Shown in pieces: positions 1 through 21,741 of a DNA stretch of 64,000 nt (its first letter is position 1; each line of letters opens with the position of its first letter). The notes beneath the pieces were generated by a model that ran no database searches, was not told where the DNA came from, and saw only the letters and a program-made list of their open reading frames with translations. Location of the stretch: NCBI GenBank assembly GCA_965221185.1, contig OZ244866.1, positions 2,469,838 through 2,533,837 on the forward strand, in the 5' to 3' direction. A program made the translations under genes and the position numbers. The DNA is from Candidatus Aldehydirespirator sp. Lineage in GTDB: Bacteria > Actinomycetota > Acidimicrobiia > Acidimicrobiales > Aldehydirespiratoraceae.

Positions 1-3000
1 GCCGCGCCGAGCAGGTCGCCGTCGAGGGGTCCTGGCCGAAACAGCATCCCGGTCCGGCACGCTCGCATCTCATTGAGCCAGTGGCCGTAGGACGAGCGCA
101 GCCGCTCGGCAGTGGCGGAGGCCACCAGATGGCAGATGCCGTCGCGGGCGGCGGCTATGCCGGTCAGCAGCCCGGAGGGGTCGCTGACGCGGTCGGCATC
201 GTCGATGAGCAGCAGTTGGCGCGGGCCCTCGGAGCGGCAGTCGAGCTCGGCCAGAGGGACCGGCTCCACGCCCAGGAGCGGTGCCAGATCGCCGAGCCGG
301 TCGGCCACCACGACCACCTGCACCCCGGCGAGGCGAGCCGCCGCGCCGATCGCGGCCAGAGCGGAGGTTCGCCCGGTGCGGGGAGGCCCCAGCACCAGGG
401 CGTGCTCGCCGTCGTGCAGCGCGAAGCCGGTCGGCGCCAGGCTCAGGTCGCCCAAGGCGAAGCGAACGTCGAGACGCCGATCCCCGTTGAGCGCGCTGCC
501 GGGCAGTTCCGTGAAGGAGATCGCATGTGGCAGCGAGCCGATGCGGGCCGGTCCGCGCCCGGTCGGCGGCACGGCCGCCGCCACCTCGGCCGCGGCTGTC
601 GCAAAGTCGCCAGCTGCGGGGCGGGCGACCTGGAGCTCTCTGCCGTCGCCTGCCCTAACCGCCCGGCCCGCGGCAAGCCCTGCCGTCGACGCCCGCAGGC
701 CGAAGCGCAGTCCCTCGCCGGCGTCAGCTGTCGCGTGGACCAGCACTACTCCCGCCGACGCAGCGAGGTCCGGCGGCAGGTCAGCGGCCCGGGCGATGCT
801 CACCGCAACTCTCAGGCCCACCCCGGGGCCGTCACTCCAGATGCGAGCGAAGCGTTCGTGGGGCTCGGGGTCGCGCACCGGGTCGTGGGCCCGGGCCAGT
901 CCGGCGAGATCGTCTACCAGCAGCACGATCGCCGTGGAGACTGGGCGGGACCGCCGGGCGGTGACCTCGTCGTCGAGCAGTCGCAGCAGGCGAGCCCGGC
1001 GCTCGCCGTCGGTCGGCGCTATCACCGCGCCCACATGGTGGAGGCCCTCCAGCACCGACAGCAGCCCGGCGTCCAGATCGATCGCGTAGACGTGCAGGTC
1101 GTCGGGGGAACGGGTCCGGCATAGATCGAGGGCCACCGCGGCCAGAGTGGTGGATGTGCCCGATCCGGGTCCGCCCATGACGACCAGATGACCGTCGCCG
1201 GGGTGCCACCCGCCGGCGAACTGGCGCTGCCGCTTCGGGTCGTCCATCAGCCAGGCCGCAGGCTCGCCCGCCTCGACCGTGGCCGCGAGGGCGCCCGCGG
1301 CGAGCTCGCAGGGCAGCGGTGCGGGCCACGGCGAGCGGGGCGCTCGGCCACCCCGGCGCCGGTGGGCGGCCCGCACCGCGTCCACCACTGCGTCCAAGTC
1401 GCTGCGCCCTGCGGGGTCGCGGCCCTGTTCGGAGTCGCGGCGCGGGTCGCGGTCGCGGTATGGGCGCGGTTCGGAGCGGGCATTCCGCGAGGGCTCCTCG
1501 GCCGGCGCGACCCGCAGGCCGGCGGAACCCACCGGCGTGGTGCCGGTCACCAGGGCCGACTGGAAGGCGATCAGCTCGCCCGGGCCGAGGCGGGCCAGCG
1601 CCTGGCCGGGCCGCTGCCGGGGGATGCGGGCCGCGGCGGGTGAGCCGATCACATCGTTGGAGTCGTGGCGGTCCGTCACCCGCAGAGCGATCCGGCACGA
1701 CGTGTTGGCTCTGATGTCGTCGGTCACCACCCCCGCCGGCCGCTGGGTGGCCAGGACCATGTGGACGCCCAGGCTCCGGCCCCGCTGGGCGATGCCCACC
1801 AGCGAGTGCAGGAAATCCGGCAGCTCTGCGGCCAGCGTGGCGAACTCGTCCACCACGACGACCAGACGGGGAAGCGGCTCGGCTGCGAGCCCGGTCCGGG
1901 TCCGGAAGGCGGCGAGATCCTCGGCCCCCGCGGCCCGCAGACGCTCCTCGCGGTGGCGCAGCTCGGCCTCCAGACACACCAGCGCCCGCTCGGCCAGGCG
2001 GTCGTCCAAGTCGGTGACCATCCCGGCGACGTGCGGCATCTCCGCGCAGCGGTCGAAGGCCGCCCCGCCCTTGTAGTCGATGAGCACGAAGGCGAGGTGG
2101 TCGGGGTCCGCCGACAGCGCCAGGCCGGCCACGAGCGAGCGCAGCAGTTCCGACTTGCCCGACCCGGTGGTGCCCCCGATCAGCAGATGGGGACCATCGA
2201 CCACGAGGTCGAGCACCAGCGGGCCCTCGGCGGCGGCGCCGATCGGCACGTGCAGATCGGCCGTGCCACGAGTTGCGTGCCAGCGCCTCTCCACCGACTC
2301 TGGAGTCGGCTCGCCGCCCAGAAGGTCCACCAGGGACACCGATTCGGGCAGGTTGGCGCGACCCGCTCCGAGCTCGGGGTCGTCGAGGCGGGCCAGGCGC
2401 GCCGCAGCGTGGTTGGCGGTCACGGTAGTGACGCCCCACGCGACGAGCGGCTCCATCACCGCCGCGGAGCGCGGGTCGACCAGCCGCAGGCCTCCGACCT
2501 CGTGATCGACCTGCACGATCGTGGTGCAGTTGGAGGGCAGATCGCATACGTCAGTGGTCACGATGATCCCGGCCGTGGGCGCCAGGGTGAGCAGCGCGCG
2601 GCCCGGCGCCGAGCGGCCGGTCAGCGCCTCCGCGCCGTCGATAACTGCCAGCAGGACCCGCTGGGCGCCGTCCGCGGCCGCGGCCTCGGCCACCGCCGAC
2701 ATGGCATCGCGCTCCGTGGCCACCAGCGCGCCGAGACCGCCGCCGGCCGCGTCGGCGGTGTGGGGAAGCCAGCGCGTCCACGACCACTCCGCCGCCCTGC
2801 CGGGGACTAGGCCGGCTATGGCCAGATCAGCCGGACCGTGGAGCACCGCAGCTTGCAGCACCAGGGCGCGGGCCACGGCGCGGGCCGCGGGCAGCGGGCC
2901 GACAACGCCGACAACGTCGCCAGGCGTCAGCGACACCGCCACCGGAACATCGCGCAGCGGCTCAAGCGCTCGCATTGCTTCGAGTGCCTCCGGCGCGACG

Positions 3001-4139
3001 GCGCCCTTGCCGTCCACATCGAGCGGCGGCGAGAAGGGCACGTCGGCGGTGCCGACGCCGAGCCGCATGGCGTCGGGATCGCCGCGGCGACGCTCCCAGC
3101 AGCGCAACGACGGAGTCTCGGCGCGTCGCACCAACTCGGCCAGGTCGGGGACCAGCGCCACCCTCCTGCGACGCTCGGCCGTCCGCTCCGCCGGCAGGGC
3201 GGCCACGAACCGCCTCACCTGGATGGCTACCTCCTCACTGGCCCGCTGATGGGCGCGGGCCGTCCGCCGGCGCCGCTCCAGCCAGGTGCCGATCGTGATC
3301 AACGGGCCCAGGGCCGCGAACACGGCCATGAACGGGTTCCACACCAGAGCCAGCACCAGCCCGGCCACCACCGGCAGGGCGATTCCTGCCCACGACAGGG
3401 GATCGGGCTCCGGCCGGGGCGGAGCCTCCGCGGGCACCCGCAACGTCGCCGGCGCGGTCGGGGGCCGGCGGCGAGGCGGGCGGTTGAACGGGATCCGTCC
3501 GGCGGTGGCCCCCAGCCCGGCGCGCACGGCCGCAGGAGCGTCGTCCACCGCGACCCGCCACTGGAGACAGGTGGCACCGAGCCGGACTGTGGCTCGGGCC
3601 GGCACCAGCGTCGAGGCGGTCACGGCGCGTCCCGCCACCACCGTGCCGTTGCACGAGCCGAGATCGGTGATGACCGCTCGCCCACCGGGCTCGTCCGTGC
3701 TCACCCGGGCATGGCGGCGCGAGACTGCGTGGTCGTCGAGCACGACGTCGCATTCCTCCGAGCGACCGATCACCCAGGAGCCCTTCGGGGGCGGCGAGAG
3801 GCGGGTGCCCGCTCGCAGGCCTGCCGTAGCCACCAATACCCGGCCGGGACTCGATCCCGAGGGTGGCGACCCGGCCTGCTGATGCGGTGACTGGGAGGGG
3901 GACTGCCCGGAGCCGGGAGCGATCTCGAGCAGCGCCCCCTCCCAGATCGGGACCGATGACAGGGGGGTCTCGGGACTGTGCCAGCTTCCGTCGATGCTGA
4001 CGCCAGCCGCCGCGCCGTCGTCGGCTTCATCGAGATGGCAGTTGAGAGCCGCGGCCAGATCCGCCACGGTGTAGTCCTCGAGGCGGGAGTCGATCTCCAC
4101 AATCCGTTCCGCACCGTCGCAACGGTGTCGGATCCGCAC
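1..4139 (-). CDS. FHA-domain FtsK/SpoIIIE-family ATPase, EssC/EccC-like type VII secretion motor (3' end runs off the window)
   Basis: Own minus-strand translation; absent from the ORF track because it leaves the window. FHA signature at about 3540-3800 (VIGRSEECDVVLDDHAVSRRHARV...ITDLGSCNGTVV). Hydrophobic segments at about 3290-3410. Three P-loop modules: GGTTGSGKSELL near 2150 with VVVDEF/RSLGVHMVLATQRP near 1750-1880, GGPGSGTSTT near 1170, GPPRTGRTSA near 375. GTG 4139 is preceded by AAGGA; GTG 4100 is an alternative start. Confidence 0.85.
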   Translation of the reverse strand, partial: MRIRHRCDGAERIVEIDSRLEDYTVADLAAALNCHLDEADDGAAAGVSIDGSWHSPETPLSSVPIWEGALLEIAPGSGQSPSQSPHQQAGSPPSGSSPGRVLVATAGLRAGTRLSPPPKGSWVIGRSEECDVVLDDHAVSRRHARVSTDEPGGRAVITDLGSCNGTVVAGRAVTASTLVPARATVRLGATCLQWRVAVDDAPAAVRAGLGATAGRIPFNRPPRRRPPTAPATLRVPAEAPPRPEPDPLSWAGIALPVVAGLVLALVWNPFMAVFAALGPLITIGTWLERRRRTARAHQRASEEVAIQVRRFVAALPAERTAERRRRVALVPDLAELVRRAETPSLRCWERRRGDPDAMRLGVGTADVPFSPPLDVDGKGAVAPEALEAMRALEPLRDVPVAVSLTPGDVVGVVGPLPAARAVARALVLQAAVLHGPADLAIAGLVPGRAAEWSWTRWLPHTADAAGGGLGALVATERDAMSAVAEAAAADGAQRVLLAVIDGAEALTGRSAPGRALLTLAPTAGIIVTTDVCDLPSNCTTIVQVDHEVGGLRLVDPRSAAVMEPLVAWGVTTVTANHAAARLARLDDPELGAGRANLPESVSLVDLLGGEPTPESVERRWHATRGTADLHVPIGAAAEGPLVLDLVVDGPHLLIGGTTGSGKSELLRSLVAGLALSADPDHLAFVLIDYKGGAAFDRCAEMPHVAGMVTDLDDRLAERALVCLEAELRHREERLRAAGAEDLAAFRTRTGLAAEPLPRLVVVVDEFATLAAELPDFLHSLVGIAQRGRSLGVHMVLATQRPAGVVTDDIRANTSCRIALRVTDRHDSNDVIGSPAAARIPRQRPGQALARLGPGELIAFQSALVTGTTPVGSAGLRVAPAEEPSRNARSEPRPYRDRDPRRDSEQGRDPAGRSDLDAVVDAVRAAHRRRGGRAPRSPWPAPLPCELAAGALAATVEAGEPAAWLMDDPKRQRQFAGGWHPGDGHLVVMGGPGSGTSTTLAAVALDLCRTRSPDDLHVYAIDLDAGLLSVLEGLHHVGAVIAPTDGERRARLLRLLDDEVTARRSRPVSTAIVLLVDDLAGLARAHDPVRDPEPHERFARIWSDGPGVGLRVAVSIARAADLPPDLAASAGVVLVHATADAGEGLRFGLRASTAGLAAGRAVRAGDGRELQVARPAAGDFATAAAEVAAAVPPTGRGPARIGSLPHAISFTELPGSALNGDRRLDVRFALGDLSLAPTGFALHDGEHALVLGPPRTGRTSALAAIGAAARLAGVQVVVVADRLGDLAPLLGVEPVPLAELDCRSEGPRQLLLIDDADRVSDPSGLLTGIAAARDGICHLVASATAERLRSSYGHWLNEMRACRTGMLFRPGPLDGDLLGA

Positions 4140-4190
4140 CGGCCTGCTGTCCTTGCTTCGATGCGGCGGTCCCGGCCGCCGTCGCTGCGG

Positions 4191-4466
4191 TCAGATCGTG
4201 TCGAGCGCGCTCATGCCCGCGTGAAGCTCGGCGGTGATGAACGCTGAGTGCTCCCCCAGCGCGTCGCACAGCGCCCGCAGGTTTGGACGGAACTCGCTCT
4301 CCCAGAGCTGCCTGAACCGGTCGGCCCTGGCCCCCTGCCATGTGGTGCCGTCGATGCCGGCGCCGATCGCGCTTATCACCCCCTCCGCCGTCTCCTTCTG
4401 CCGGGCGAAGATCACCGCTAGCTGCTCCATCTGCGACTTCGACATCACCAGCATGTCACCAGCCAT
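4191..4466 (-). CDS. WXG100 (ESAT-6-like) family secretion substrate
   Basis: 91-aa product from ATG 4466, with AAAGGAGGG 5 nt upstream. Central W-x-G motif (DGTTWQGARADRF). It sits 51 nt upstream of the EssC-like gene on the same strand. The extra 16 codons of track ORF 4191..4514 lack an RBS. Confidence 0.85.
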   Translation of the reverse strand: MAGDMLVMSKSQMEQLAVIFARQKETAEGVISAIGAGIDGTTWQGARADRFRQLWESEFRPNLRALCDALGEHSAFITAELHAGMSALDTI

Positions 4467-7943: not shown

Positions 7944-9219
7944 CGGCGCAGGAGTGATCGGCGCGGCCACCGCCTTCGAGCTGGGGCGGCGGGGCCGGCG
8001 AGTGCTGTGCGTGGACAAGCTCCCCGGCGCCGGGTTCGGCTCGACCGTCAACTCGTGCGCCATCGTGCGCTTCACCTACTCCACCTACACCGGCGTGGCC
8101 ATGGCCTACGAGGGACTGCAGTACTGGCTGGAGTGGCCCGCGTACCTTGAGGCCCCCGACGAGCTGGGCATCATCGAGTACCGGCAGTGCGGGATGGCAA
8201 CCCTCAAGGACCCCGGCGGCCACTACCTCAAGGTGCTCCCCCACTTCGACGCCATCGGCGTGGCCTACGAGGAGTGGTCCACCGACGAGCTGCTCCGCCG
8301 GATGCCGATCGTCGACGCGGGGGTGTTCGGCCCGCCCAAGCGGCCCGACGACCCAGACTTCTGGGCGGACCCGACCGAGCAGCTGCCCGGAGCGGTGTTC
8401 ACCCCCGAGGCGGGCTATGTGAGCGATCCCCAGCTCACCACCCACAACCTGCAGCGGGCCGCGGAGGCCGCCGGCGCCGAGTTCCGCTTCTCCACCGCGG
8501 TGACCGCCATCGGGCGGGCCGGCGGCCGGGTGACCGGCGTGATCCTCGACGGCGGCACCACCGTGGCCGCGCCGGTCGTGGTCAACGTGGCCGGCCCGCA
8601 CTCGTATCTGATCAACCGGACAGCCGGCGTCTACGAATCGATGAACATCAAGACCCGGGCGCTGCGCCACGAGGTCCACCACACCCCGGGTCCGGCTGAC
8701 TTCAACTACGAGCGGGACGGCTTCAACATCGCCGACGACGACAACGGCATCTACTTCCGGCCCGAGACCGGCAACCACATCCTGGTGGGCAGCACAGACC
8801 CCCGCTGCGACCCCCAGGACTGGGTGGACCCCGACGGCTACGACCAGCGCCTCGCCCCGGACCAGTGGGAGGCGCAGGTGCTGCGGCTCAACCGGCGCCT
8901 GCCGTCGCTGGGCGTGCCCCACGAGCGCAAGGGCGTGGTCGACCTCTACGACGTGAGCGACGACTGGATCCCCATCTATGACCGCACCGACCTCGACGGC
9001 TTCTACGTCGCCATCGGCACCAGCGGCAACCAGTTCAAGAACGCCGGGGTAGCCGGGCACTGCATGGCCGAGCTGATCGAGGCGGTGGAGGCCGGCCACG
9101 ACCACGACCACGACCCGCTGGTGGTGGAGGGCCGCTACACCGGCCTGCCCATCGACATGGCCACCTTCAGTCGCAACCGCGAGGTCAACCCCAACTCCTC
9201 CATGTCAGTCCACGGCTGA
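7891..9219 (+). CDS. FAD-dependent oxidoreductase (DAO family)
   Basis: 442-aa ORF with an N-terminal dinucleotide-binding motif (YDAVVIGAGVIGAATAFEL). Confidence 0.85.
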   Translation: MATDLVRSRSNGYDAVVIGAGVIGAATAFELGRRGRRVLCVDKLPGAGFGSTVNSCAIVRFTYSTYTGVAMAYEGLQYWLEWPAYLEAPDELGIIEYRQCGMATLKDPGGHYLKVLPHFDAIGVAYEEWSTDELLRRMPIVDAGVFGPPKRPDDPDFWADPTEQLPGAVFTPEAGYVSDPQLTTHNLQRAAEAAGAEFRFSTAVTAIGRAGGRVTGVILDGGTTVAAPVVVNVAGPHSYLINRTAGVYESMNIKTRALRHEVHHTPGPADFNYERDGFNIADDDNGIYFRPETGNHILVGSTDPRCDPQDWVDPDGYDQRLAPDQWEAQVLRLNRRLPSLGVPHERKGVVDLYDVSDDWIPIYDRTDLDGFYVAIGTSGNQFKNAGVAGHCMAELIEAVEAGHDHDHDPLVVEGRYTGLPIDMATFSRNREVNPNSSMSVHG

Positions 9220-9285
9220 CCAGATGAGGCGGCGGACGTGCCGACGCCGCTCGCTATGCGGATGCTTTGATGTTATGATGCGCGT

Positions 9286-9522
9286 GTGCGCACTACCGTG
9301 TCAATACGAGACGAGACTTACGAGGAAGCCCGGCGGATAGCGTTCGAATCACGCCGGACGCTCGGTGCGGTCATCAATGAACTCCTTGCCGAGGGTCTCA
9401 AGCAGGTGGCCCGACCACCGGCGCGTCGCCGACTCGGACAGCTCCGCGGCACGATCACGATCGCCGACGACTTCGACGACACGCCTGCAGAAGTCCTCGA
9501 CTCGCTCGACGACCCGCTCTAA
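9286..9522 (+). CDS. vapB: type II antitoxin, VapB-like
   Basis: 78-aa ORF (MRTTVSIRDETYEEARRIA...). Its stop overlaps the ATG of the PIN gene (TAATG). TATGAT at 9274-9279 lies 6 nt before the GTG start, consistent with a leaderless transcript. Confidence 0.8.
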   Translation: MRTTVSIRDETYEEARRIAFESRRTLGAVINELLAEGLKQVARPPARRRLGQLRGTITIADDFDDTPAEVLDSLDDPL

Positions 9523-9902
9523 TGGCCGCGCTCCTGCTGGACACGCACGTCCTGCTCTGGGCCAACGAAGCGCCGGAACGACTCTCGAGCGAGGCCGTGG
9601 CCGCACTGGAGGATCCGGCCAACGACCTCCTGGTGTCGTCGATCTCGGTCGCTGAGATCGAGATCAAGCGCCGGCTCGGCAAACTGACCCTGGAACACAG
9701 CTGCCACACACTCGCCGAACAGCTCGACGCGCTCTGGCTCGACCTCACGGCAGTTCACGCGATGGCTCTGCGAACACTGCCGTACCTGCACGCCGATCCG
9801 TTCGACCGGCTCCTGATCGCCCAGGCCATGGCCGAGGGCCACACCCTCGTCACCACCGACGAGAAGGTGCTCGCCTACCCGATTTCCACCCTCACCGCGT
9901 GA
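9522..9902 (+). CDS. vapC: PIN-domain ribonuclease toxin VapC
   Basis: 126 aa with PIN acidic residues in context (LLLDTHVLLW, SISVAEIEIK, DPFDRLLIAQA, LVTTD). Confidence 0.9.
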   Translation: MAALLLDTHVLLWANEAPERLSSEAVAALEDPANDLLVSSISVAEIEIKRRLGKLTLEHSCHTLAEQLDALWLDLTAVHAMALRTLPYLHADPFDRLLIAQAMAEGHTLVTTDEKVLAYPISTLTA

Positions 9903-10051
9903 CGACCTGATCCGCACCGCCATCTCCGATGCGCCGGATGCCAACAACTTCCGGCGACCACCGGGCGGCGACATCTTTTCAGTCGCTGCGGTCATGCGAC
10001 TTGTAGGCTCCGAATCCGCCGCCGGCCGCCTAAACGGGAAAGTGCGCAACC

Positions 10052-11890
10052 ATGGACGTCCAACAGATAGTCGGTACGGCCCGCACTGTCAGTCAACTCC
10101 TCTCGAACAGCCGCTAGGGCCTCGACTTCTACCAGCGCGAGTACAGCTGGGAGGAGGCACAGGTCGGCGACCTAATCGAGGACTTGGCCGACCGCTTCCG
10201 CAACGAGTTCGACCCCGGTCACGAACGATCTGACGTAGATTCATACCGCCCCTACTTCCTAGGGCCGATCGTTACGGTCCAGCGCGACGGCATCCGGTAC
10301 CTAGTCGATGGGCAGCAGCGGATCACGACCCTGAGCCTCCTGCTCATCCACCTACGCAGCTCCCTAGCCGGGACGCACCCGAACGAGAAGGCGGCACTCG
10401 ACTCGCTGATCTTCTCGTGGAAGTTCGGGAAGGAGACATTCAATCTCCACGTTGAACAACGCGAGGAGTGCCTTCGAGCCATCCTCAACAGCGGACACTT
10501 CGATGCGGACGGACAGCCGGAGTCGGTCCGGAACCTCTCCAATCGATACCAGACCATCGTTCACCGCTTCCCCGAAGACCTGGTCGGCGAAGCGCTCCCC
10601 TACTTCTCCGACTGGCTCCAACACCGAGTCCTCCTCGTAGACATCGTCGCGTCAGATCAGGACATGGCCCTCGAGATATTCGAGACCATGAACGACCGAG
10701 GCCTCCGGCTGAGCAACACCGACATGCTCAAGAGCTTCCTGCTTCCGCAGGTGCGCGACGAGCAGGCGATCCGCGACCTCAACGACCGATGGCGCCGCCG
10801 GATCACGGAACTGGCCGACTTGGAGCCCAATGCCGACGCGGAGTTCGTGAAGGCCTGGCTGCGGGGTAACTACGCCCTGACGCAGCGCGAGCGCAAATCG
10901 AGGGCTTCGCCACGCGATTTCGAACTGATCGGCACGGCATTCCACAAGTGGGTTCGAGACAACCGGAGCACGATAAGGCTCAGCAAGCCCGCCGATTATC
11001 GACGCTTTGTGGAAAACGAGTTCATGAGGCTCAGCGACCGCTACCTGCAACTGCTCCGATCCACACACGAGTCCGACGACGGCCTCGAAGCCGTGTACCA
11101 CAACGCCCACGCCGGGCTCACGCTGCAACTGCCGGTGATCCTGGCGGCTGTGACCCCTGACGATGATGACCAGACGTTTAGAGACAAGGCCGCTCTCGTC
11201 GCGGGAGCTCTTGATATCTACGTCGTTCGACGTATGGCCAGCTACCGCAACTTCGGCTACTCCACCGTCGTCTACACGATGTTCAACTTGATGAAGGAGT
11301 TGCGGAACCGACCGACTGAGGAGGTCAGAGAAGTTCTTGCCCGGTGGCTCGACCGCGAGCACGAGCGGCTCGACGGGTTCCTCACGCTTCGGCTCCATCA
11401 GCGCAACCGCTGGCATGTCCACTACATCCTGGCTCGGATAACAGCCTGGATGGACGCGGAGTTGGAGACCGGGACGACCTTCTTCAACTACTTCGTGGAA
11501 CGGCGTAGGCACCCATTCGAGGTGGAGCACATCTGGGCCGACCACTTCGACCTGCACTCCCACGAATTCGACAACCCCTACGAGTTCGCAGAGCACCGCA
11601 ACAAGATCGGCGGGCTGCTACTGCTCCCCAAGGACTTCAACGCCAGCTACGGCGCCATGGGCTACGAGGACAAGGTGAAGCACTATTTCCGCCAGAACCC
11701 TCTTGCCCAGTCGCTTCACCACAGAGCGTACAAGAACAACCCGAGCTTCTTGAGGCTTCGAGAGGCCCACGGTCTCGCCTTCCGGACGTACCGGTCATCG
11801 TTCACCAAGGCAGACATCGACGAGCGCCAGGCGCTGTACCGCGACCTGGCCGAGATCATCTGGGCACCAAGCCGCCACGGACTGTGTTGA
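10052..11890 (+). pseudogene. GmrSD-like DUF262/DUF1524 (type IV restriction-like) gene interrupted by an in-frame TAG
   Basis: ATG 10052 gives MDVQQIVGTARTVSQLLSNSR-TAG(10115-10117)-GLDFYQREYSWEEAQVGDLIEDL, which continues in frame into track ORF 10184..11890. That ORF carries the DGQQR motif and the C-terminal His-Me finger region (FEVEHIWADHF, NKIGGLLLLPKDFN). GC is visibly lower than in the flanks. Confidence 0.8.
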
Positions 11891-11895
11891 CGGCC

Positions 11896-11928
11896 CGGCG
11901 AGCCGCCAGCTGCGACGGCCGCTCGCCG
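11896..11928 (+). terminator. possible stem-loop terminator after the GmrSD-like gene
   Basis: CGGCGAGC-17 nt-GCTCGCCG starts 6 nt after the TGA stop. There is no clear U-tract. Confidence 0.3.
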
Positions 11929-12109
11929 CTGTGTTGGGAACGAAACACACGATCACACGCTCGGGTGCTGGTTGAAGGTGAACAATGACTCGGACTGATG
12001 GGGTGGGGACTGATGATGGCCGGACCGGCTCAGTGCAGGCGCCACGGGGACTCGCAGGCTCGGGCGGCTCAAGAGTATGCAGTTGCGCATGTTTATTTGT
12101 GATGGATAT

Positions 12110-12388
12110 ATGCAGAAACAGCGGGTGACGATCACGGTGGACGAGGCCCTTCTCGACGAGGCGAACAGCGCGGTTAGCGCGGGGCGCTCCCGCTCGGTCA
12201 GCGAATGGATCGGCGAGGCGATGGCACAGCGGCGGGACAGAGATCATCGACTCGCCGTGCTGAGCCGATTGCTCTCCGAGTACGAAACCGAGCACGGCTT
12301 CATCACCGATGACGAGATTGCGGAGCAAGCCGAGCGGGATCGGGACGCGGCCGCATCGTTTCGAGTGGCGACTCGACGAGTCGGATGA
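12110..12388 (+). CDS. ribbon-helix-helix (CopG-like) antitoxin
   Basis: ATG 12110 gives MQKQRVTITVDEALLDEANSAV.... ATGA overlap with the following PIN-type ORF. Confidence 0.7.
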   Translation: MQKQRVTITVDEALLDEANSAVSAGRSRSVSEWIGEAMAQRRDRDHRLAVLSRLLSEYETEHGFITDDEIAEQAERDRDAAASFRVATRRVG

Positions 12389-12540
12389 GCGACACTCTGG
12401 ACTCGGGTGCGTTCCTCGCGCTCGAGGGCAACGACCGCCGGATGTGGCGCCGCCTCAAGGGCTCTCTGCAGGCCGCAAGCCCGCCCAAGACCCACGGCGG
12501 CGTGGTCGCGCAAGTATGGCGCGGCGGACCCGGCCGGCAA
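12385..12540 (+). pseudogene. 5' fragment of a PIN-domain (VapC-like) toxin gene
   Basis: MSDTLDSGAFLALEGNDRRMWRRL...VVAQVWRGGPGRQ looks like a PIN N-terminus. Similarity stops near 12540, where an IS21-type fragment begins on the opposite strand. Confidence 0.6.
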
Positions 12541-13000
12541 ACACGACCGGACCCAGGGCGCAGACCCCGGTCCCGGATGCGGCGCACGAACGTCGAATAC
12601 GACGCCCCATAGCCCAGCGCCCGCGCCTCCGCGAACAGCACCGTCGCCCGCACATGGGGGTCCTCCGCCAGCCGCTGGCGCACATAGTCCGCCACCGCGT
12701 CGAAGGGATCGACAGAGCTGCTGCGGCGCACCCCCGCCTCGCGGTCGCCGGCCAGATGGGCGCGCACCGTCTTGTGGTCAAGGCCCAAATGGCGGGCGAT
12801 CGCCGAGATCGACCATCCCTGCCCTCTCAGTGCGTGAATCTCCACGTCTTCTCCATGTGTGGTCATCTGAGCCGGGGCTCCTCTGGTCGCTGAACATCTC
12901 TCAACGCCCAGCACAGAGGAGCTCCACCCCAACCGGGTGGATCCCCCGCAGGTGGGGAACTTCAGTGATCAGAACTGGGGAATTTCAGTGATCGCCGTCA
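12541..13000 (-). mobile_element. IS21-family insertion sequence remnant (left end plus about 104 N-terminal codons of IstA)
   Basis: ATG 12866 with AGAGGAG upstream gives MTTHGEDVEIHALRGQGWSISAIARHLGLDHKTVRAHL...VLFAEARALGYGASYSTFVRRIRDRGLRP, an IstA-type HTH N-terminus. Two 18-bp direct terminal repeats, tggggaa(c/t)ttcagtgatc, lie at 12953-12970 and 12976-12993. No istA C-terminus, istB or right end is present. Confidence 0.65.
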
Positions 13001-13126
13001 GCTCGAGCGAGGCTTTCGCACACCGAACGCGCACCGGAGCCCTCGTGCCACAGATTTGAACTCAGAGCACCGAAGGCATTGAACACCCGGCGGCGCGTCG
13101 CCCCGAGGACTCCGAAGTGTCGGGGT

Positions 13127-13681
13127 CTACGGCTGCTGGTCGGGGAGGAGGGCTTGATAGGCGTCGAGGGTCTCGCGGTTGAAGCAGACGAAGCGCACTA
13201 CGCGGACCTGGGTCGGCGCCGTTCGCACCGCGTGGACCGCGATCGCTGCCGCCGGCTGGACCGGAAAGCCGTAGACGCCGGTGGAGATGGCCGGGAACGC
13301 CACGGACTCGGCGCCGACCTCGTCGGCTCGCGCCAGAGACTCCCGGTAGCACGACGCCAGCAGGGCGGGCTCGTCCTGCTCACCTCCTCGCCATACAGGG
13401 CCGACAGTGTGAATGACCCAGCGCGCCGCGAGGCGGTAGCCGGGCGTGATCTTGGCGTCACCGGTGTCGCAACCGCCGAGACCCCGGCAGAACTCAAGCA
13501 GCTCGGGACCGGCAGCCCGATGAATGGCCCCGTCCACGCCCCCGCCGCCCAGCAGCGATGAGTTGGCTGCGTTGACGATCGCGTCCACCCCCTCGACCGT
13601 GATATCGCCGAGGTCGACCTCTAGGCGGGGGCCGCCAGCATCTGAGGGAGCTGACAAGCCGGAACTGTCCATGCCCGTCAT
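13127..13681 (-). CDS. macro-domain protein (ADP-ribose / O-acetyl-ADP-ribose processing)
   Basis: Motifs [34 protein letters not shown] and [14 protein letters not shown] prefer ATG 13681 as the start; the ORF stays open up to 13780. Confidence 0.85.
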
Positions 13682-13784
13682 TCTGCCCGCCGTCGAATCG
13701 TCCACACCTCGCTCGGCGGCGAACCGCTTCCGACCGACCCGGCACCGTGAGACCCGGAATGGGCCGAGCCTTGCGGGCAACTCT

Positions 13785-15320
13785 CTAGGCGAGGGTGAAC
13801 AGCGGCTCGGATTGGTGGGTTTCGGCCGATGAGCGTGCGTTCGGGTCGGCTCGACCTGATGCCAGCCCGGCTACGGAACCCATCCCAGGGTGCCTTGCTG
13901 CCCGCTGGGGCGGGAGTCCGTGGGCTGGCGGGGGGTCGGGGGCGTGTGCGGGTCCGTGGCGGATCCGCTCAGGCGGCGCGATCGTGTAGAGGCCCCTACC
14001 GTCGGGCATCACCCGCCAACCGTGGTGGTGCACCTTCTGGTGGCAGGCCCAACACAACAACATCATGTTGTCGATGTTCGTGGGCCCGCCCTCAGAGACT
14101 GGTCTGATGTGATGGCTCTGGCACAGCCACATGTCGGCGCCACAGCCCCCGCAGGCCCCATAAAGGGCTCGCAGCGCGCTCATCTGGGCCTGGGTGGCGA
14201 GCCGTTTGGCGTGGCTGTGCCACAGAGGCAGCCCCTGATGACTGAACACCACCCCTTTGATCCGGGCGCCGCAGAAGTACTCCTCAAGCACGCTCACAGG
14301 GATCACGCCGCCCCCAGCGACCTCCGCGAACGCCGCAGCGCCATCCGCGCTGAGATGCTGCACGATGGTGATGTCAGCCGACGGCCGGCTCGCACACCCG
14401 CACTTCCTGCCACCTGCGGAGCCGCCTTTGGCGGTCCCGCTCACATCGCGGCCGTTGCCGATATCAGACTCACTCATGACACCGACACCGCCACTGGCCC
14501 GGCTCCCACCGCCATTGCCGATATCAGACTCGCTCATGACCGTGCTGGCGTTGGTGGCGCCGCGGCCATGTCCGGTGGGTGGCGCGCTTGTGGCGCTGGA
14601 GTGGATGCTTCCGTGCGAGGTCAAGGTGTCGAGCGCGTCGGCCATGCGCTGGTTGAGGCTGCGCTTCTCCCCGCCAGCACTGTGCAAGTCCAACCGACGC
14701 AGCCGCTCAGCCTCCAACAAGAACCGCTTGCGCACCTTGGCCCCAGTAACCGGATCCAACTCGCCCCGCAGGTGCACCATGCCGTCGTCGCCGTCCCAGA
14801 TGTTCAACCGACGTCGAGCCCGCTGCCTGCGATAGGCGTCTTCGCCGCCGATGGCTTGGCGCCGTGCAGCCCACCGGCCCGCCTCGCGGACAAAATGCTC
14901 TTGCGCAAGCCCGGCGGCCATCTCTAGCAGTTCGGTGTCGCTCTCAACCTGTTCGGCGCTGGTCTTGTCACTGGCAGCCGCAAGCACCCTGGCGTTCGCA
15001 ACAGAGATGCCACCGGTCTCGACCGCGTCACGCACCGCGGGCATCGACTGCAGGCTGTGCGCGGTCCTCACCTGACCGGCGGCTTCGCGACGGGACAGCC
15101 CGGCAGCCTGCGCTAGCACTCCAACACCGCCGTCGCCGTGACGCTCACGCCCGGCAACCCCGGCAGCGGTATCGGCCTGCAACACCGCCAGCTGCCCGCC
15201 GAAGGTCTTGCACTCGGTCAGAACGGTCCTCAAGTCCGAGGTCGGGGTAGCCGGGTCGTTCACAAAACGGATCAACTCCGCCAGTCCCTCCCGCACCTGT
15301 CGTACCGTCCCAATACCCAT
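13785..15320 (-). CDS. DUF222 / HNH endonuclease (13E12-repeat-like) protein
   Basis: C-terminal HNH region ([36 protein letters not shown]) and a DUF222-like N-terminal part. Internal 60-nt duplication at 14451-14540 ([10 protein letters not shown] twice). I prefer ATG 15320 as the start. Confidence 0.85.
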
Positions 15321-15326
15321 AAACAC

Positions 15327-15356
15327 ATGATGCCATAGGGGTGTGACAATTGTCAA
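15327..15356 (-). promoter_or_regulatory. putative promoter of the HNH gene with embedded palindrome
   Basis: On the minus strand: TTGACA (15356-15351), 18 nt, then TGG-CATCAT (15332-15327), then 6 nt to ATG 15320, which implies a leaderless transcript. The perfect palindrome TGACAATTGTCA (15344-15355) overlaps the -35. Confidence 0.45.
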
Positions 15357-15460
15357 GCATTTACATGATTTTTCAAACCAACTGAACGTTCACCACTCTA
15401 CTCCAGCCGATCAGCGCCGCGAGACCGGTAGGCGCACTTGCCAGCGCGTACTGTCGGGGC

Positions 15461-15964
15461 GTGCCGCGGTTGTTCGTCGCGCTCTGGCCGCCTGAGAATG
15501 TGGTGCGGGAGCTGGCTGGGATGCCCCGGCCTGAGGTGGACGGTCTGCGCTGGACCAAACCCGAGCGGTTGCACATCACCCTGCGGTTCCTGGGCCAGTG
15601 CGACGAGGCCGAGGCGGCCCGAGCGCTGCGCCGGGTCAGCTTCGCGCCGGTGCGGGTCGCGCTGGGACCGTTGCTCAAGCGCCTGGGACGCGGCATCGTC
15701 ATGTTGCCGGCCAGCGGCGTGGACGGTCTCGCCGCTTCGGTAACGGAGGCGACCGACCGCATCGGCCAGCCTCCTCCGGAGCGTCGCTTCACCGGTCACA
15801 TGACCGTCGCTCGCTTCCGGCGCGATCCACCATCGGGCCAATGGCCGCCCGAGGGCCTGCCCACGCTCGATGCCTCGTTCACCGCATCGGACATGGCTCT
15901 GGTACGCGTGGAGCCTTCCGGCGCTTACGTGAACGTGGAGCACTTCGACCTGAGTCCTCCATGA
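15461..15964 (+). CDS. thpR: 2H phosphoesterase, RNA 2',3'-cyclic phosphodiesterase / 2'-5' RNA ligase family (copy 1)
   Basis: 167 aa with two H-x-T motifs (HITLRF, HMTVARF). Confidence 0.85.
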   Translation: MPRLFVALWPPENVVRELAGMPRPEVDGLRWTKPERLHITLRFLGQCDEAEAARALRRVSFAPVRVALGPLLKRLGRGIVMLPASGVDGLAASVTEATDRIGQPPPERRFTGHMTVARFRRDPPSGQWPPEGLPTLDASFTASDMALVRVEPSGAYVNVEHFDLSPP

Positions 15965-15978
15965 TGTAGCTCCGACTC

Positions 15979-16830
15979 TCAGCCGGCCGCGATGAGCGCA
16001 ACCGCCACCAGCGCGACGCCGAGTCCCAGCACCTGGACCCTTCGCAACTTCTCGCGGAATACGAGCCAAGCCCAGAACACGGTCACCGCAGTGAACAACG
16101 ACGTGAGGACGGCCGCCACCGACGTAGACCCCACTCGGGTCGCCGTCAGGAACAGCGCATTGCCGACGGTAACCAGTGCCGCAATGGCGAGCACGTGAGG
16201 CCACACGTCACGAGACACCGACCTGGGAATCCCCCTTGTGGCGATGACGAGCGCTAGCACCACGAACCCGGACCCGCGTGCGGCCACAATCGGCCACAGG
16301 CCGCCGTTCTCCGACGTCCGGGAAAGGCACAGGAACAAGAGCCCGATTCCGAGTGCCCCGCCCAACCCGTAGAGCAGGCTGGATCCGACGCTGCCCCGCT
16401 GATCGGAGCGGGCGATGCTGACGAGCCCAATGGCCACCAGTCCAAGAAGAATCCCTGCGATCGCCCTGATCGACAAATCGTCATCACCGAAGAGCGATTC
16501 GACGATGACGGGCAGAGCGGCCGCGCCCACACCAGCCACCGGCGCGGCCACAGTGACCCGAGCGCAGGCGTATCCCGCGTACAGCGCGACCAGCCCGGCC
16601 GACACTCCGACACCGCCCAGCGCCCCCCAGGCCGCATCGGTGGCCGTGACCTCCCCTACTACGACCAACGCCGCGACGAACGCCATCGCGAAGCCAGCGA
16701 GGTTCGAAGAGGCAGTCACCACAACCGGCTCGGCTCGCCGGCTGCTCAAACCACCCAGAAAGTCCGACGTCCCCACTGACAGCGCGGCCAACAAGCCCAA
16801 GAGCACCGTCACAACGACATCACCTCGCAA
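15979..16830 (-). CDS. EamA/DMT-family membrane transporter
   Basis: 283-aa, highly hydrophobic protein with about 10 predicted helices arranged as a duplicated 5-TM pattern. Confidence 0.75.
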   Translation of the reverse strand: MRGDVVVTVLLGLLAALSVGTSDFLGGLSSRRAEPVVVTASSNLAGFAMAFVAALVVVGEVTATDAAWGALGGVGVSAGLVALYAGYACARVTVAAPVAGVGAAALPVIVESLFGDDDLSIRAIAGILLGLVAIGLVSIARSDQRGSVGSSLLYGLGGALGIGLLFLCLSRTSENGGLWPIVAARGSGFVVLALVIATRGIPRSVSRDVWPHVLAIAALVTVGNALFLTATRVGSTSVAAVLTSLFTAVTVFWAWLVFREKLRRVQVLGLGVALVAVALIAAG

Positions 16831-17010
16831 GTCTGGTGGGCGGTGCGGTCATTGTCGACTGCTGCCAAACGACAGTGCGGGCGCAGCCCTCCCAGCCGTG
16901 GTGATGTCCCCTCTGACAGCAGCCGGAACCGATTGGCGGTTTGACCGCTCAGTCCTGGCGCGGCCCGAGCGGTCCGGTCGCGAAAGGTCGCTCTGGCATA
17001 ATGTCCGGAA

Positions 17011-17508
17011 ATGCCACGGCTGTTCGTTGCCGTCTGGCCGCCCGACGATGTGTTGGGGGAGCTGGCCGCAATGCCCCGGCCCACAGTGGACGGTTTGCGT
17101 TGGACCAAACCCGAGCGGCTGCACATCACCCTGCGGTTCCTGGGCCAGTGCAACGAGACCGCGGCGACCGCGGCACTGCACCGAGTGAGCTTCGCGCCGA
17201 TCAGAGTGACGCTGGGACCGACGCTCAAGCGCCTGGGGCGCGGCGTCGTGATGTTTCCGGCTAGCGGCGTGGACGGCCTTGCCGCTTCGGTCACGGAGGC
17301 GACCGACCGCATCGGCCAGCCTCCCCCGAAGCGTCGCTTCACCGGTCATATGACCGTGGCCCGCTTCCGGCGCGATCCGCCATCGGGCCAATGGCCACCC
17401 GAGGATCTGCCCACGCTCGATGCCTCGTTCACCGCGCCGGATATGGCCCTAGTGCGCGTGGAGCCCTCGGGCACCTACGTGAACGTGGAGCGCTTTGGCC
17501 CTCGCTGA
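17011..17508 (+). CDS. thpR: 2H phosphoesterase, RNA 2',3'-cyclic phosphodiesterase family (copy 2)
   Basis: 165 aa, collinear with copy 1 and highly similar over most of its length (MPRLFVA(L/V)WPP..., HITLRFLGQC, HMTVARFRRDPPSGQWPPE). CATAAT at 16997-17002 lies 8 nt before the ATG. Confidence 0.85.
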   Translation: MPRLFVAVWPPDDVLGELAAMPRPTVDGLRWTKPERLHITLRFLGQCNETAATAALHRVSFAPIRVTLGPTLKRLGRGVVMFPASGVDGLAASVTEATDRIGQPPPKRRFTGHMTVARFRRDPPSGQWPPEDLPTLDASFTAPDMALVRVEPSGTYVNVERFGPR

Positions 17509-17618: not shown

Positions 17619-18569
17619 TCACTTCTCCCAGTGGGGAGTCCAGTCGCCTTCCAGTTGCATTGACATCCTGGCGTCGTCGGCTACACGCCGGGCCACGCAC
17701 ATCTCTCCCGCATCGAGGCCGTAGCGAGCCGCAGCCCGCTCGAAGGCGCTCCGGGCCGCCGCGGTCACCGGCAGGTCCGCGTCCACGCTCGACTCGAGGT
17801 CGGCCAGCAAGCCCAGATCCTTGACGCACAGAGCGAGCGGAAACGACGGGTCATAGTGACCGGCGAAGATACTGGGGGCGTCGTGACGGGCAACAAAACT
17901 GTCACCCACGCTGTTAAGGATGGACTCCCACAGGATCCTCAACTCCACGCCGTTGGCCACGCCCACCGCGAGACCCTCGCCCAGGACGGCGGCGGCCGCA
18001 AACCACAACTGGTTGGTCACGAGCTTCACGACGTTGCCGGAACCGAGCGGACCGCACTCGATCACGGTCCCGAGAATCTCGAGCAGGGGCCGAGCCACGG
18101 CCACTGGCTCCGGCTCACCTCCCACGAACAGGGTGAGCGTGCCGAGGCGGGCGCCGTCAACTGCGCCCGTCACCGGCGAGTCGACCACGGCCACGCCTGC
18201 GGGTGCGGTCGAAGCCAGCCCCAGCACCAGTTCTCGGCTGTTGGTGGTGAGATCGACCCACACTGAGCCGGGTCTCATCGCGCCGAGCGCACCGCCGGCC
18301 CCGGCCATGACCGCCTCCACCTGTGGGGGTCCGGGCAGTGACGTCATGAACAGATCGGTGTCGCGAGCGCAGTCGCGAGCCGACGATGCGGCCGTGGCCC
18401 CGGCGTCCACCGCCGCGGCCAGCGCATCTGCGTCGAGGTCGTAGGCCCTGACGTGGTAGCCCGCGGCCACCAGCCGCCGGCACATCGGTCCCCCCATCGT
18501 CCCGAGTCCCACGAACCCGATCCTGCGACGGGCCCGAGCCTCTCCGGATGCGGGCGCTGAGCCGTCCAT
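17619..18569 (-). CDS. NAD(P)-dependent beta-hydroxyacid (3-hydroxyisobutyrate-type) dehydrogenase
   Basis: N-terminal Rossmann motif IGFVGLGTMGGPM, with family-typical central and C-terminal regions. Confidence 0.85.
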   Translation of the reverse strand: MDGSAPASGEARARRRIGFVGLGTMGGPMCRRLVAAGYHVRAYDLDADALAAAVDAGATAASSARDCARDTDLFMTSLPGPPQVEAVMAGAGGALGAMRPGSVWVDLTTNSRELVLGLASTAPAGVAVVDSPVTGAVDGARLGTLTLFVGGEPEPVAVARPLLEILGTVIECGPLGSGNVVKLVTNQLWFAAAAVLGEGLAVGVANGVELRILWESILNSVGDSFVARHDAPSIFAGHYDPSFPLALCVKDLGLLADLESSVDADLPVTAAARSAFERAAARYGLDAGEMCVARRVADDARMSMQLEGDWTPHWEK

Positions 18570-18654
18570 GAGCCCAGAAAGCTACCGCAGAGCACACGGC
18601 CGATCCCACGGTCAGATGTCCAGTTCCCGCAGCCAGCGAAAGGGCCGCCACAAC

Positions 18655-19881
18655 TCAGACCAAGTCGAGGGGATAGCGCGAGAGGCGTTCGTTGCCGGTG
18701 TCGGTGATGAGGACCTGCTCCTCGAGCTTGACGCCCTCGCCGCCGGACTTCGGGCCGACAAAGGCCTCGACGCACATCACCGTGCCCGGCTGCAGTTCGG
18801 TGTCGTAACCCTCCCTGCCCCAGCGCTCACGCGTGTACACCGACGGGTACTCGTCGCACAGGCCCACGCCGTGCGACAGCAGGGTGTAGCAGTTGTAGTG
18901 CTCCCGCGACGGATGCCACGACCGCTCAGACATCTCGCGCACCGACGCGCCCGGCTGGTGCAGCTCGATGTTTCGCTCGATCTGCTCCCTGGCCAGAGAC
19001 CACACATCGTTCTGGGCCGGTGTCGGGCGCCCGCCGCCGCACAGCCAGGTCCGGGAGATGTCCACGCACGCTCCGTATGCGCACACCATGTCGGTGTCGA
19101 AGCCCATCAGCTCACCAGCCTGCACGCGGCGGCTGCTGGCCTCCTGGTACCAGGGGTTGGTGCGCGGGCCCGACGCAAGCAGCCGGGTCTCGATCCACTC
19201 CCCGTAGCGGGCGAAGTTGCCGGCCTGCAACTCTGCCCACAGACCCATCTCAGTGATGCCGGGCTCGAAGACAGCCCGCATGTCGTCGATCGCCGCCTCG
19301 CAGGCATGGACGGCGCAGCGCATCGCCGCGATTTCCTCGGAGGACTTCACCACGCGCGCCTCCTCCATGAGCGCCCACGCGTCGACGAGGCTCACGCCGC
19401 GCTTCTCCAGCGCTCGCACGCCGATCAGGTCGATCTGGTCGACGGCGAGCCGCACATCGCCCCGGCCGTGCTCAGCCAGCAGGCCGGCGATCTCTTCCGC
19501 CCATCGGTCCGCGACCTCCTCGGCCCGGGACCCCGCATAGAAGTAGATGTGCGACAGCCCCGGGCGGATCTCGTCCACAACCTCGGAGTGCGTGTTCAGG
19601 AACTCTCCCTTGGAGAACTCGAACATCACCACCGGGCCGTCGGTGGCCACAAGGGCGTAGCGCACGGCGTTGTGCATCGTCCAGATCGACATGTTGGTGG
19701 TGTCGGTGGCGTAGCGGATGTTGAGCGGGTCGTACAGCAGCGCGGCGTCGCATCCCGCGGCCCGCAGCTGCGCCCGCACCCGCTCCAGGCGGTAGCGCCG
19801 GATCGCGGGGCGGTCCGGCAGCCGAAGCCCGGCCGCAAGCCACTCCGCCTCCAGCTCCGGTCCCGGCCCCAGCGCGTGCAT
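18655..19881 (-). CDS. M24-family metallohydrolase (creatinase / Xaa-Pro peptidase fold)
   Basis: ATG 19881 gives MHALGPGPELEAEWL.... Creatinase-like N-domain and pita-bread C-domain (GFDTDMVCAYGACVDISRTW, HGVGLCDEYP, MCVEAFVG). The substrate cannot be inferred from sequence. Confidence 0.8.
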   Translation of the reverse strand: MHALGPGPELEAEWLAAGLRLPDRPAIRRYRLERVRAQLRAAGCDAALLYDPLNIRYATDTTNMSIWTMHNAVRYALVATDGPVVMFEFSKGEFLNTHSEVVDEIRPGLSHIYFYAGSRAEEVADRWAEEIAGLLAEHGRGDVRLAVDQIDLIGVRALEKRGVSLVDAWALMEEARVVKSSEEIAAMRCAVHACEAAIDDMRAVFEPGITEMGLWAELQAGNFARYGEWIETRLLASGPRTNPWYQEASSRRVQAGELMGFDTDMVCAYGACVDISRTWLCGGGRPTPAQNDVWSLAREQIERNIELHQPGASVREMSERSWHPSREHYNCYTLLSHGVGLCDEYPSVYTRERWGREGYDTELQPGTVMCVEAFVGPKSGGEGVKLEEQVLITDTGNERLSRYPLDLV

Positions 19882-21665: not shown

Positions 21666-21741
21666 GCAGCGCCGCCGACTCGCCGCTCTGGATCAGACAT
21701 CGACAGGCGCTCGTCGGCGGCCACGCGCTTCGACCGAAAGC

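Follow-up and report, generated by a model that had tools for sequence, protein, structure and literature searches.

In a window of 64,000 nucleotides (the whole stretch of DNA analysed here: Candidatus Aldehydirespirator sp., contig OZ244866.1, positions 2,469,838 to 2,533,837) we found a gene of the GmrSD nuclease family, composed of a DUF262 domain, a helical linker and a DUF1524 domain, that is interrupted by a single in-frame amber codon in place of Tyr22 (Y22*). The stop very probably reflects a real, recent and inactivating mutation, and in the population the same gene has been knocked out independently many times, Y22* being one of these events. This second finding goes beyond an earlier reading of the window by a model that was given the letters and a list of open reading frames (ORFs), in the following called the sequence-only reading. 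It had recognized the gene and its stop and had left three options: nonsense inactivation, a sequencing error, or a product re-initiated at position 10184. Nonsense inactivation is the best supported of the three, re-initiation is unlikely and a sequencing error is disfavoured. New here are the repeated inactivation at the population level and a correction of the annotation; a pseudogene of a known family is in itself ordinary, and nothing changes in the knowledge of how the enzyme family works.

An amber codon interrupts a GmrSD-family gene

From the ATG at 10052–10054 to the TGA at 11888–11890 the frame comprises 612 codons, and the TAG at 10115–10117 is its sole interruption. Since 21 full codons precede it ((10115 − 10052)/3), the TAG is codon 22; the translation around it reads ..SQLLSNSR*GLDFYQREYSWEEAQVGDLIEDL.. 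Coordinates and translation agree with the sequence-only reading, which had described one in-frame TAG in a frame otherwise open from ATG 10052. Over its whole 1839 nt the gene is 96.85% identical to an intact allele (contig L003, 10001–11839), which served as the reference for all alleles. The two differ by no insertions or deletions (indels) and the known motifs are present, so that everything downstream of the stop is intact as had been claimed.

Domains were searched in the read-through product with the stop masked. Both Pfam domains of the GmrSD family score above their gathering cutoffs: GmrSD_N (PF03235) with an E-value of 5e-31 and 108.8 bits against a cutoff of 33.2, and GmrSD_C (PF07510) with 2.9e-6 and 27.6 bits against a cutoff of 23. 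The GmrSD_N match spans the complete profile (positions 1–199 of 199). As profile position 1 already aligns at residue 13, the match of the frame upstream of the stop is far beyond chance. The DGQQR motif, described as a nucleotide-binding/hydrolysis motif (PMC4619093, PMC8565348), is found intact, and the His-Me residues E492-H493 (11525–11530), N517 and N530 are all kept in the translation of the window. In an alignment of 60 sequences DGQQR, E492, H493 and N530 are invariant, and N517 is conserved in at least 90%. The best match in PADLOC is HEC-06 (PDLC04155, 1.5e-34; PDLC04157, 4e-34, residues 3–546 on profile positions 4–519 of 558), followed by the ‘Orf5’ and SspE models, and no NCBIfam model matched the read-through product. 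Membership of the locus in the GmrSD family, already assigned in the sequence-only reading, is therefore secure, namely as an interrupted member (pseudogene): the uninterrupted frame of the family is broken by the TAG at codon 22.

By its domains the intact protein would most likely be a single-chain DUF262/DUF1524 nuclease that is gated by nucleoside triphosphate (NTP) and acts against phage or foreign DNA, and it would probably recognize a DNA modification state. The sequence-only reading had spoken of a modification-dependent nuclease. The nuclease family stands; the dependence on modification had been taken over from the family name and is a family-typical expectation, with modified DNA as the putative substrate, and the nearest fold is that of the phosphorothioate-sensing DndI.

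A program-made list of ORFs gives the locus as 10184..11890, 568 aa, with a TTG start, exactly 44 codons of the frame lying upstream of this TTG. The public record also lists a 568-aa coding sequence (CDS). This ORF is a gene-calling artefact of the type ‘first start after a stop’. GGGAAAG at −16 to −10 of ATG 10052 is a plausible ribosome-binding site (GGGAAGG in L003). At TTG 10184, GAGGA ends 1 nt before the codon and is thus too close to act as a Shine-Dalgarno sequence. In the sister species (contig L091) codon 45 is CTG, and the gene caller chose a GTG at codon 74 there. Gene callers mask such lesions by internal Leu or Val start codons, likewise in at least six relatives. In the public record the 568-aa CDS ought to be annotated as a pseudogene of a 612-codon GmrSD-like gene. 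A scan for sigma-70 promoters and intrinsic terminators gave nothing and is uninformative at the GC content of the window (68.5%), and a search of the window against Rfam returned no element.

The N-terminus is conserved and belongs to the DUF262 core

A protein search against 5.8 billion sequences yielded 4753 homologues. Among the best 120, nearly all have 612–620 aa and cover 100% of the read-through query, which identifies the upstream 44 codons as the true N-terminus, as the sequence-only reading had supposed. One match of 100% identity is the 568-aa call of this same genome, on a 4.10-Mb contig. A natural start at the equivalent of codon 45 occurs in none of the 120 best homologues. Alignment to profile hidden Markov models and to orthologues, which the earlier reading had named as a check, confirmed the family and placed the start of the homologues at the equivalent of 10052 and not of 10184. 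Shorter calls that could be traced to DNA or to an N-terminal fragment (P0001, P0096, P0125, P0126, P0131, P0134, P0137) all carry lesions upstream.

At the position of the stop the 115 aligned homologues contain Tyr (102) or Phe (13) and nothing else. The TAG thus replaces a typical tyrosine, and with TAT or TAC in the close alleles it lies one substitution away from a sense codon, both of which had been predicted. The 21 codons before and the 22 codons after the stop are identical to those of the intact orthologues P0122 and P0127, and P0002 has the same 21 codons before the stop. Within the first 44 residues L24, Q28, R29, E30 and W33 are invariant, and many further positions are at least 90% conserved.

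For the structure the intact allele P0122 was modelled with AlphaFold2 (predicted local distance difference test, pLDDT, 88.7; predicted template-modelling score, pTM, 0.78). The model begins with an alpha/beta domain, continues in a long helical linker and ends in a nuclease domain. It is nearly all-helical from about residue 203 to 481, with pLDDT mostly above 85, a length within the 200–400 residues that define the linker. Residues 1–44 form a strand (8–12), a helix (13–17), a second strand (22–24), a helix carrying the YQREY motif (26–30) and the start of a helix at 35–52. In the model the second beta-strand of DUF262 begins with Tyr22. Since two strands and two helices fall into residues 1–44, a product starting at codon 45 would be without part of the DUF262 core. 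In the literature, the GmrS domain has its first conserved block at about residues 8–98 (PMC4619093).

The stop is recent

To the protein belongs a cluster of 13 sequences at 90% identity, and DNA was recovered for most of them. The contigs of these relatives are syntenic to the window and 95–98% identical to it in nucleotide sequence, and on this basis we regard them as diverged strains of one species-level population. The closest allele, on contig L001, differs from the gene in the window by 3 substitutions in 1838 nt, namely TAG/TAT and two nonsynonymous changes, with zero synonymous ones. L001 has TAT at codon 22 and a 1-bp deletion of its own in codon 35. Codon 22 is also TAT in L002 and L091 and is TAC in L003 and L004. 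Judged from these alleles the ancestral codon was most likely TAT and the mutation a T to G change at 10117. Because the 99.8% identical L001 retains TAT, Y22* arose after a very recent common ancestor with L001, in agreement with the very recent inactivation suggested by the sequence-only reading.

Over 8.6 kb the window and L001 differ by four indels. Two of these keep the frame, a third is located shortly after the stop codon of a PIN gene, and the only one that breaks a coding frame is in this gene. In the window the neighbouring genes (large ESX-associated gene, WXG100, ECH, luciferase-like, ADH, DAO, PIN, Macro, HNH and EamA) are intact, and the long housekeeping ORFs are uninterrupted. 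We considered a window-wide pseudogenization and rejected it: a large gene that seems fragmented (411–4139) is intact and runs off the window edge.

The close similarity to L001 extends over a block of about 7 kb (Table 1). At its flanks (8250–9000 and 16000–16860), inside the DAO and EamA genes, the divergence from L001 is about 10%. Such sharp edges suggest that the island was recently exchanged by recombination or that its flanks are hypervariable. A search for repeats or att-like sites bounding the shared block found nothing convincing.

The same gene is inactivated repeatedly in the population

We then compared the alleles of the relatives, with coverage read from the style of the contig names, which is that of long-read metagenome assemblies. 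Besides Y22* in the window, we found W33* (TGA) in L002 (2x), the 1-bp deletion at codon 35 in L001 (8x), a 2-bp insertion at codon 106 in L005 (12x), and a 1-bp deletion at codon 267 in both L006 (18x, with an additional 7-bp deletion at codon 352) and L007 (3x), which come from different samples. A deletion of nt 1–1401 with a common breakpoint is present in L008 (11.75x), L009 (26x) and L010 (a 3.07-Mb contig). Within one species, six independent lesion classes thus break the gene in 9 of 14 contigs, alongside three intact alleles: P0122 (L003, L004), P0121 (L093, L094) and P0127. The same samples hold both intact and broken alleles.

Lesions also occur outside of this species. In the sister species (82% amino acid identity) Q15 is changed from CAA to TAA in L091 (30x), and in L092 an insertion sequence (IS; HTH_38 + rve) is located near codon 130. 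In a set of 80 other species-level loci taken from GTDB genomes, the gene is broken in five: L020 with Q15 changed from CAG to TAG (nt 6043) on a complete chromosome, L031 and L036 with frameshifts, L032 with W269* and W495*, and L062.

Pairs of alleles show a ratio of nonsynonymous to synonymous substitution rates (dN/dS) of 0.10–0.17, which indicates purifying selection during the divergence of the alleles and places all lesions at the tips. Variants private to L007 match the intact allele P0121, that is, the alleles recombine. Given this recombination and the small sample, branch-wise selection tests are unreliable.

The codon-267 deletion (L006 6001–7831, L007 5638–7475) splits the DUF262 domain from the linker and DUF1524, leaving ORFs of 291 aa and of 251 or 288 aa, which resembles the two-protein GmrS/GmrD. 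Such an arrangement is active in E. coli CT596 (PMC12707154). The dN/dS of 0.165 between L006 and L007 was considered as a sign of a working split form, and this was rejected, as recombination of alleles accounts for the value. Two full-length tandem GmrSD-like copies, each about 47–48% identical to the query, are found in a metagenome-assembled genome (MAG) of Ca. Spongiisociaceae (L044, OZ241842.1; 3829–5673 and 6001–7824), and L051 and L054 contain an additional C-terminal GmrSD-like fragment close by.

The nonsense mutations fall at codons 15, 15, 22 and 33 and one at codon 269, and a frameshift at codon 35; the early events are spread over three species-level groups. The first 35 codons make up 5.7% of the gene length and 8.2% of the nonsense-mutable paths. 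They contain 4 of 5 nonsense events (binomial P ~2e-4) and 5 of 13 lesions of all types (P ~5e-4), both with a cutoff chosen post hoc. As the sample was in addition partly chosen for truncated proteins, we treat the clustering as a lead and not as a result. Clean nulls may be of advantage compared with C-truncated DUF262 fragments, or an N-truncated product may be of use; easy reversion and a hotspot of mutation are further possible causes.

Taken together, single sponge metagenomes hold a natural series of intact and independently broken GmrSD/HEC-06-like alleles. The series offers a handle on why symbionts lose type IV-like nucleases, be it relaxed phage pressure or conflict with DNA modification, and lets one ask whether lesions truly favour the extreme N-terminus.

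Loss of the gene and alternative explanations

We propose the following course of events. The intact gene would encode a DUF262 NTPase/sensor joined by the helical linker to a DUF1524 His-Me nuclease, in a small island of low GC content. A single base change, likely TAT to TAG, would turn Tyr22 into a stop, so that ribosomes would end after 21 residues. Efficient re-initiation 67 nt further on, at a TTG codon for Leu that has no usable ribosome-binding site, would be unlikely, and the gene would be null. The population may be shedding this gene because selection on a decaying defence island is relaxed or fluctuates. The view of a decaying island comes from the broken haplotypes, which also are without a helicase pair, and from the truncated PIN gene downstream.

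Several observations weigh against this account. The TAG is present in just one assembly, which gives weight to an error or a minority variant, and an exact look-up of the 568-aa product in the contig index returned no record. Some contigs of the relatives are of low coverage by name (2x, 3x), and dropping them loses the W33* event. The sequence leaves room for low-level read-through or re-initiation, so the loss of function from Y22* is argued from the gene and its homologues. The region erodes generally, with the GmrSD gene as the extreme case, and the pattern is partly not specific to this gene. Finally, the evidence on the cause of the loss is indirect; it favours relaxed or fluctuating selection over self-targeting. 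In two further searches, a scan of JGI metagenomes with a pattern that covered codon 22 and left a third base free gave 0 matches, and the best segment from a scan of GTDB genome contigs reached 77% identity, the window's own species not being among the matches.

Self-targeting would leave the same pseudogene and explain it by positive selection for the loss, the nuclease having turned against its host after a new DNA modification (methyltransferase, phosphorothioation or similar) was acquired. We hold this to be possible, though on the unlikely side. Window and L001 carry two independent knock-outs among about 17 differences in their 7-kb block, and most sampled alleles are broken despite the low long-term dN/dS. 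In addition, restriction-modification systems are often mutually incompatible (PMC12707154). However, a rough estimate gives ~0.5–1 inactivating events expected under neutrality for this pair, against the 2 observed, and a search of the 64-kb window turned up no modification gene. Neighbouring accessory genes decay too, and the absence of the helicase pair from the broken haplotypes looks like an erosion of the whole island. The structural neighbour nearest to the putative nuclease is a phosphorothioate sensor.

With regard to the early position of many lesions, they might act as a recurrent, selected OFF switch or N-truncation of the nuclease in sponge symbionts. The early nonsense alleles (Q15* twice, Y22* and W33*) are single-base changes and therefore revertible. 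If true, this would amount to a standing mix of ON and OFF alleles of a nuclease that is costly to keep, and to mutational bet-hedging that operates without the machinery of repeat-tract phase variation. We consider it doubtful.

It appears improbable that the TAG stems from faulty sequencing or assembly, or from a minority variant taken as the consensus, and that the organism has an intact 612-codon gene. The single assembly, the distance of one base from an intact gene and the public 568-aa CDS are compatible with such an error. Against it speak the clean assembly around the stop and the comparison with L001, which breaks the frame nowhere else in 8.6 kb. A random error would moreover have to strike one of few stop-creating positions in a gene that is broken by at least five other lineages, and the lesions of the relatives include contigs tagged 12–30x as well as lesions common to different samples.

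We see even less room for a real stop followed by a functional product of residues 45–612 from TTG 10184, perhaps under changed regulation, for example a nuclease without its NTPase gate, and rate this as very improbable. The 568 codons downstream are intact, lesions of the relatives cluster in the first 35 codons, and the active GmrS/GmrD pair of CT596 arose from a stop codon with re-initiation (PMC12707154). The split between GmrS and GmrD, however, falls between domains and not within one, and the missing residues would include the invariant Q28, R29, E30 and W33 of the DUF262 core beside DGQQR. The TTG is the conserved Leu45, CTG in the sister species, with too short a spacing to GAGGA, and the 120 best homologues do not start there. 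The downstream differences between window and L001 (2 nonsynonymous, 0 synonymous) fit relaxed constraint, in tiny numbers.

The MttB family of methyltransferases is known for in-frame amber codons and pyrrolysine. Decoding of the TAG by pyrrolysine, a suppressor tRNA or programmed read-through, with a full-length protein still made, could be considered in view of an MttB-family gene 8 kb downstream (20148–21665) and of TAG being 4 of the 6 premature stops in the gene across relatives, but we reject it as scarcely credible: this MttB homologue is uninterrupted (505 aa, ending in TAA) and of the non-pyrrolysine type, TAG closes 16 of 52 crude gene calls in the window, neither a tRNA gene nor an Rfam element is present there, a bias to TAG among nonsense mutations is expected at this GC content, and Tyr or Phe in all homologues marks position 22 as no recoding site.

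Relation to known systems

HEC-06, the best match in PADLOC, is a GmrSD-like ‘Hma-embedded candidate’ with shown antiphage activity that was described as distinct from BrxU and SspE (bioRxiv 10.1101/2024.01.29.577857). The likeness is one of a single polypeptide of ~560–610 aa with DUF262, helical linker and DUF1524, at the level of profiles only. HEC-06 is embedded in Hma, whereas the gene in the window lies between toxin-antitoxin pairs, with a Macro gene and a DUF222-HNH gene as further neighbours; it is also interrupted by a stop, and its host is an actinobacterial sponge symbiont. With GmrSD and Eco94GmrSD the locus shares both Pfam domains, DGQQR, the E/D-H..N..N residues and a helical linker of ~250 residues, an architecture described in PMC4619093. 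The sequences are distant, and GmrSD cuts glucosylated 5-hydroxymethylcytosine (glc-5hmC) or 5hmC, whereas the substrate of the gene in the window is putative.

A Foldseek search with the P0122 model found SspE (7drs, 8.9e-12), DndI (9jfl, 3.8e-11, TM 0.52–0.53) and BrxU (7p9m, 3e-6). DndI (PDB 9jfl) and SspE (6jiv, 7drs) are the closest solved structures, 9jfl also by sequence (E 6e-7), and their N-terminal YQRxYSW and DGQQR motifs align with the protein of the window. They differ in identity (14–16%) and in their partners: DndI and SspE work with DndBCDE or SspABCD, none of which is found in the 64-kb window or the syntenic loci. Instead of attacking modified phage DNA, some relatives sense phosphorothioate on the DNA of their host. 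BrxU (PDB 7p9m), also of the two-domain GmrSD family, is an NTP-regulated nuclease acting on modified cytosines (PMC8565348). It sits in a BREX locus, whereas no BREX components are found in the window or in the loci of relatives, and its overall TM of ~0.28 is consistent with a different packing of the domains. Neither the ~50 ORFs of the window that were scanned nor the gene tables of the syntenic loci contained a gene for a DNA methyltransferase or a dnd, ssp or BREX gene.

The locus resembles pseudogenized defence genes in natural populations, with young mutations at the tips of an accessory gene that is otherwise under purifying selection. Unlike in ordinary defence pseudogenes the density is unusual, with at least six events in one species-level population, 9 of 14 contigs and an apparent excess in the first 35 codons.

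Genomic setting

By its gene content the window is ordinary chromosome: it encodes IleRS, ribonucleotide reductase, ABC transporters and a metabolism of the betaine/creatine type. The GmrSD gene lies in a trough of GC content (~0.61 vs 0.685), and its GTDB relatives are almost all MAGs of sponge-associated Acidimicrobiia (Ca. Aldehydirespirator, Ca. Poriferisocius, Ca. Poriferisodalis). The accessory island has the order 78-aa ORF and PIN, GmrSD, 103-aa ORF and truncated PIN, Macro, DUF222-HNH and LigT.

Table 1. Features of the GmrSD-family locus and its surroundings, in positions of the window
Feature	Position	Strand	Remark
GmrSD-family gene (DUF262-linker-DUF1524), now pseudogene	10052..11890	+	single frame, 612 codons + TGA
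True ATG start	10052..10054	+	orthologues begin MDVQQI/M(A)VDVQQI here
GmrSD_N/DUF262 (ParB/Srx-like NTPase)	10088..10744	+	residues 13-231; Pfam PF03235
Premature amber TAG replacing Tyr22	10115..10117	+	Y/F in homologues, TAT/TAC in alleles
TTG ‘start’ of the 568-aa ORF call, conserved Leu45	10184..10186	+	L45 invariant
DGQQR nucleotide-binding/hydrolysis motif, intact	10307..10321	+	residues 86-90; D86 G87 Q88 Q89 R90 invariant
GmrSD_C/DUF1524 His-Me (HNH-type) nuclease	11396..11830	+	residues 449-593; Pfam PF07510
78-aa ORF + PIN-domain (VapC-like) ORF, likely toxin-antitoxin pair	9286..9902	+	PIN 3.9e-11; syntenic in L001, L003, L004, L091
103-aa ORF + PIN toxin gene truncated to 75 aa	12077..12612	+	residues 1-54 of 126-aa orthologue left
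Macro-domain gene (13127-13780) + DUF222-HNH gene (13785-15356)	13127..15356	-
Block ~99.8% identical to metagenome contig L001, flanks ~10% diverged	9100..16000		~7 kb

In all four loci with an intact allele (L003, L004, L093, L094) a helicase pair is located between EamA and LigT (L003 14227–21355). It consists of a UvrD-like protein of 595 aa (PADLOC NERD+UvrD/GajB-like) and a 1730-aa fusion of RNase_T, DinG and RecQ (DpdF/PsyrT/type IV DinG-like). In all eight broken or deleted loci it is missing from the retrieved flank; the corresponding place in the window is 16830–17011. The association of the pair with an intact gene is perfect, yet confounded by ancestry, since the intact loci effectively represent two lineages. 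The reading of the pair as a named defence system was rejected: its PADLOC matches are only at the level of generic helicases, and there was no match to Hma.

Other genes of the region served as controls. The luciferase-like gene is intact in all nine loci carrying it, and EamA is without stop or frameshift wherever it is present, with a match to residues 1–69 only in L005. Lesions were found in the DAO-family oxidase, with a frameshift in L003 and L004 (8364–9013) and a stop in L010 (3406–4734), and in the amidase, which has a stop in L005 (3938–5359) and is partly deleted together with the 5’ end of GmrSD in L008–L010 (L008/L009 4933–5799). The DUF222-HNH gene is frameshifted in the 3x contig L007, and L010 has IS/transposase genes inserted downstream.

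The truncated PIN gene (12385–12612; 4127–4354 in L001) is the second decayed gene of the island. Compared with L003 (12181–12561) the homology of the haplotypes stops near 12545, and its 103-aa partner ORF is intact. Two paralogues similar to LigT/2’-5’ RNA ligase (15461–15964 and 17011–17508, forward strand) flank the gene of the EamA transporter, the first of them within the accessory island beside Macro and HNH. The combination of Macro and LigT is often tied to ADP-ribose or RNA-repair conflict systems. In the comparison of control genes LigT was left out of account, as its frameshift flags in the window and L007 probably stem from alignments to the second paralogue (17011–17508 in the window).

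Further along the window, a cluster at 17619–23087 suggests a betaine/creatine-type metabolism of methylated amines. It contains the MttB-family gene (20148–21665), a creatinase/M24 peptidase (18655–20073), an OpuAC betaine-binding protein (21822–23087) and a 3-hydroxyisobutyrate-dehydrogenase-like gene. A gene of the eukaryote-like GPP34 family (Golgi phosphoprotein 3; Pfam 3e-45) is located at 37411–38064 on the forward strand; the family has been reported in association with sponge-symbiotic Actinobacteriota (PMC11706023), in line with the origin inferred for the window. At the other end of the window, 411–4466 on the reverse strand resembles type VII/ESX-like secretion, with a WXG100 gene (4194–4466) and with a very large ORF that is FtsK/SpoIIIE-like in part and extends beyond the start of the window. 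This large ORF is fused in the window and in L003 and appears as two calls in L004.

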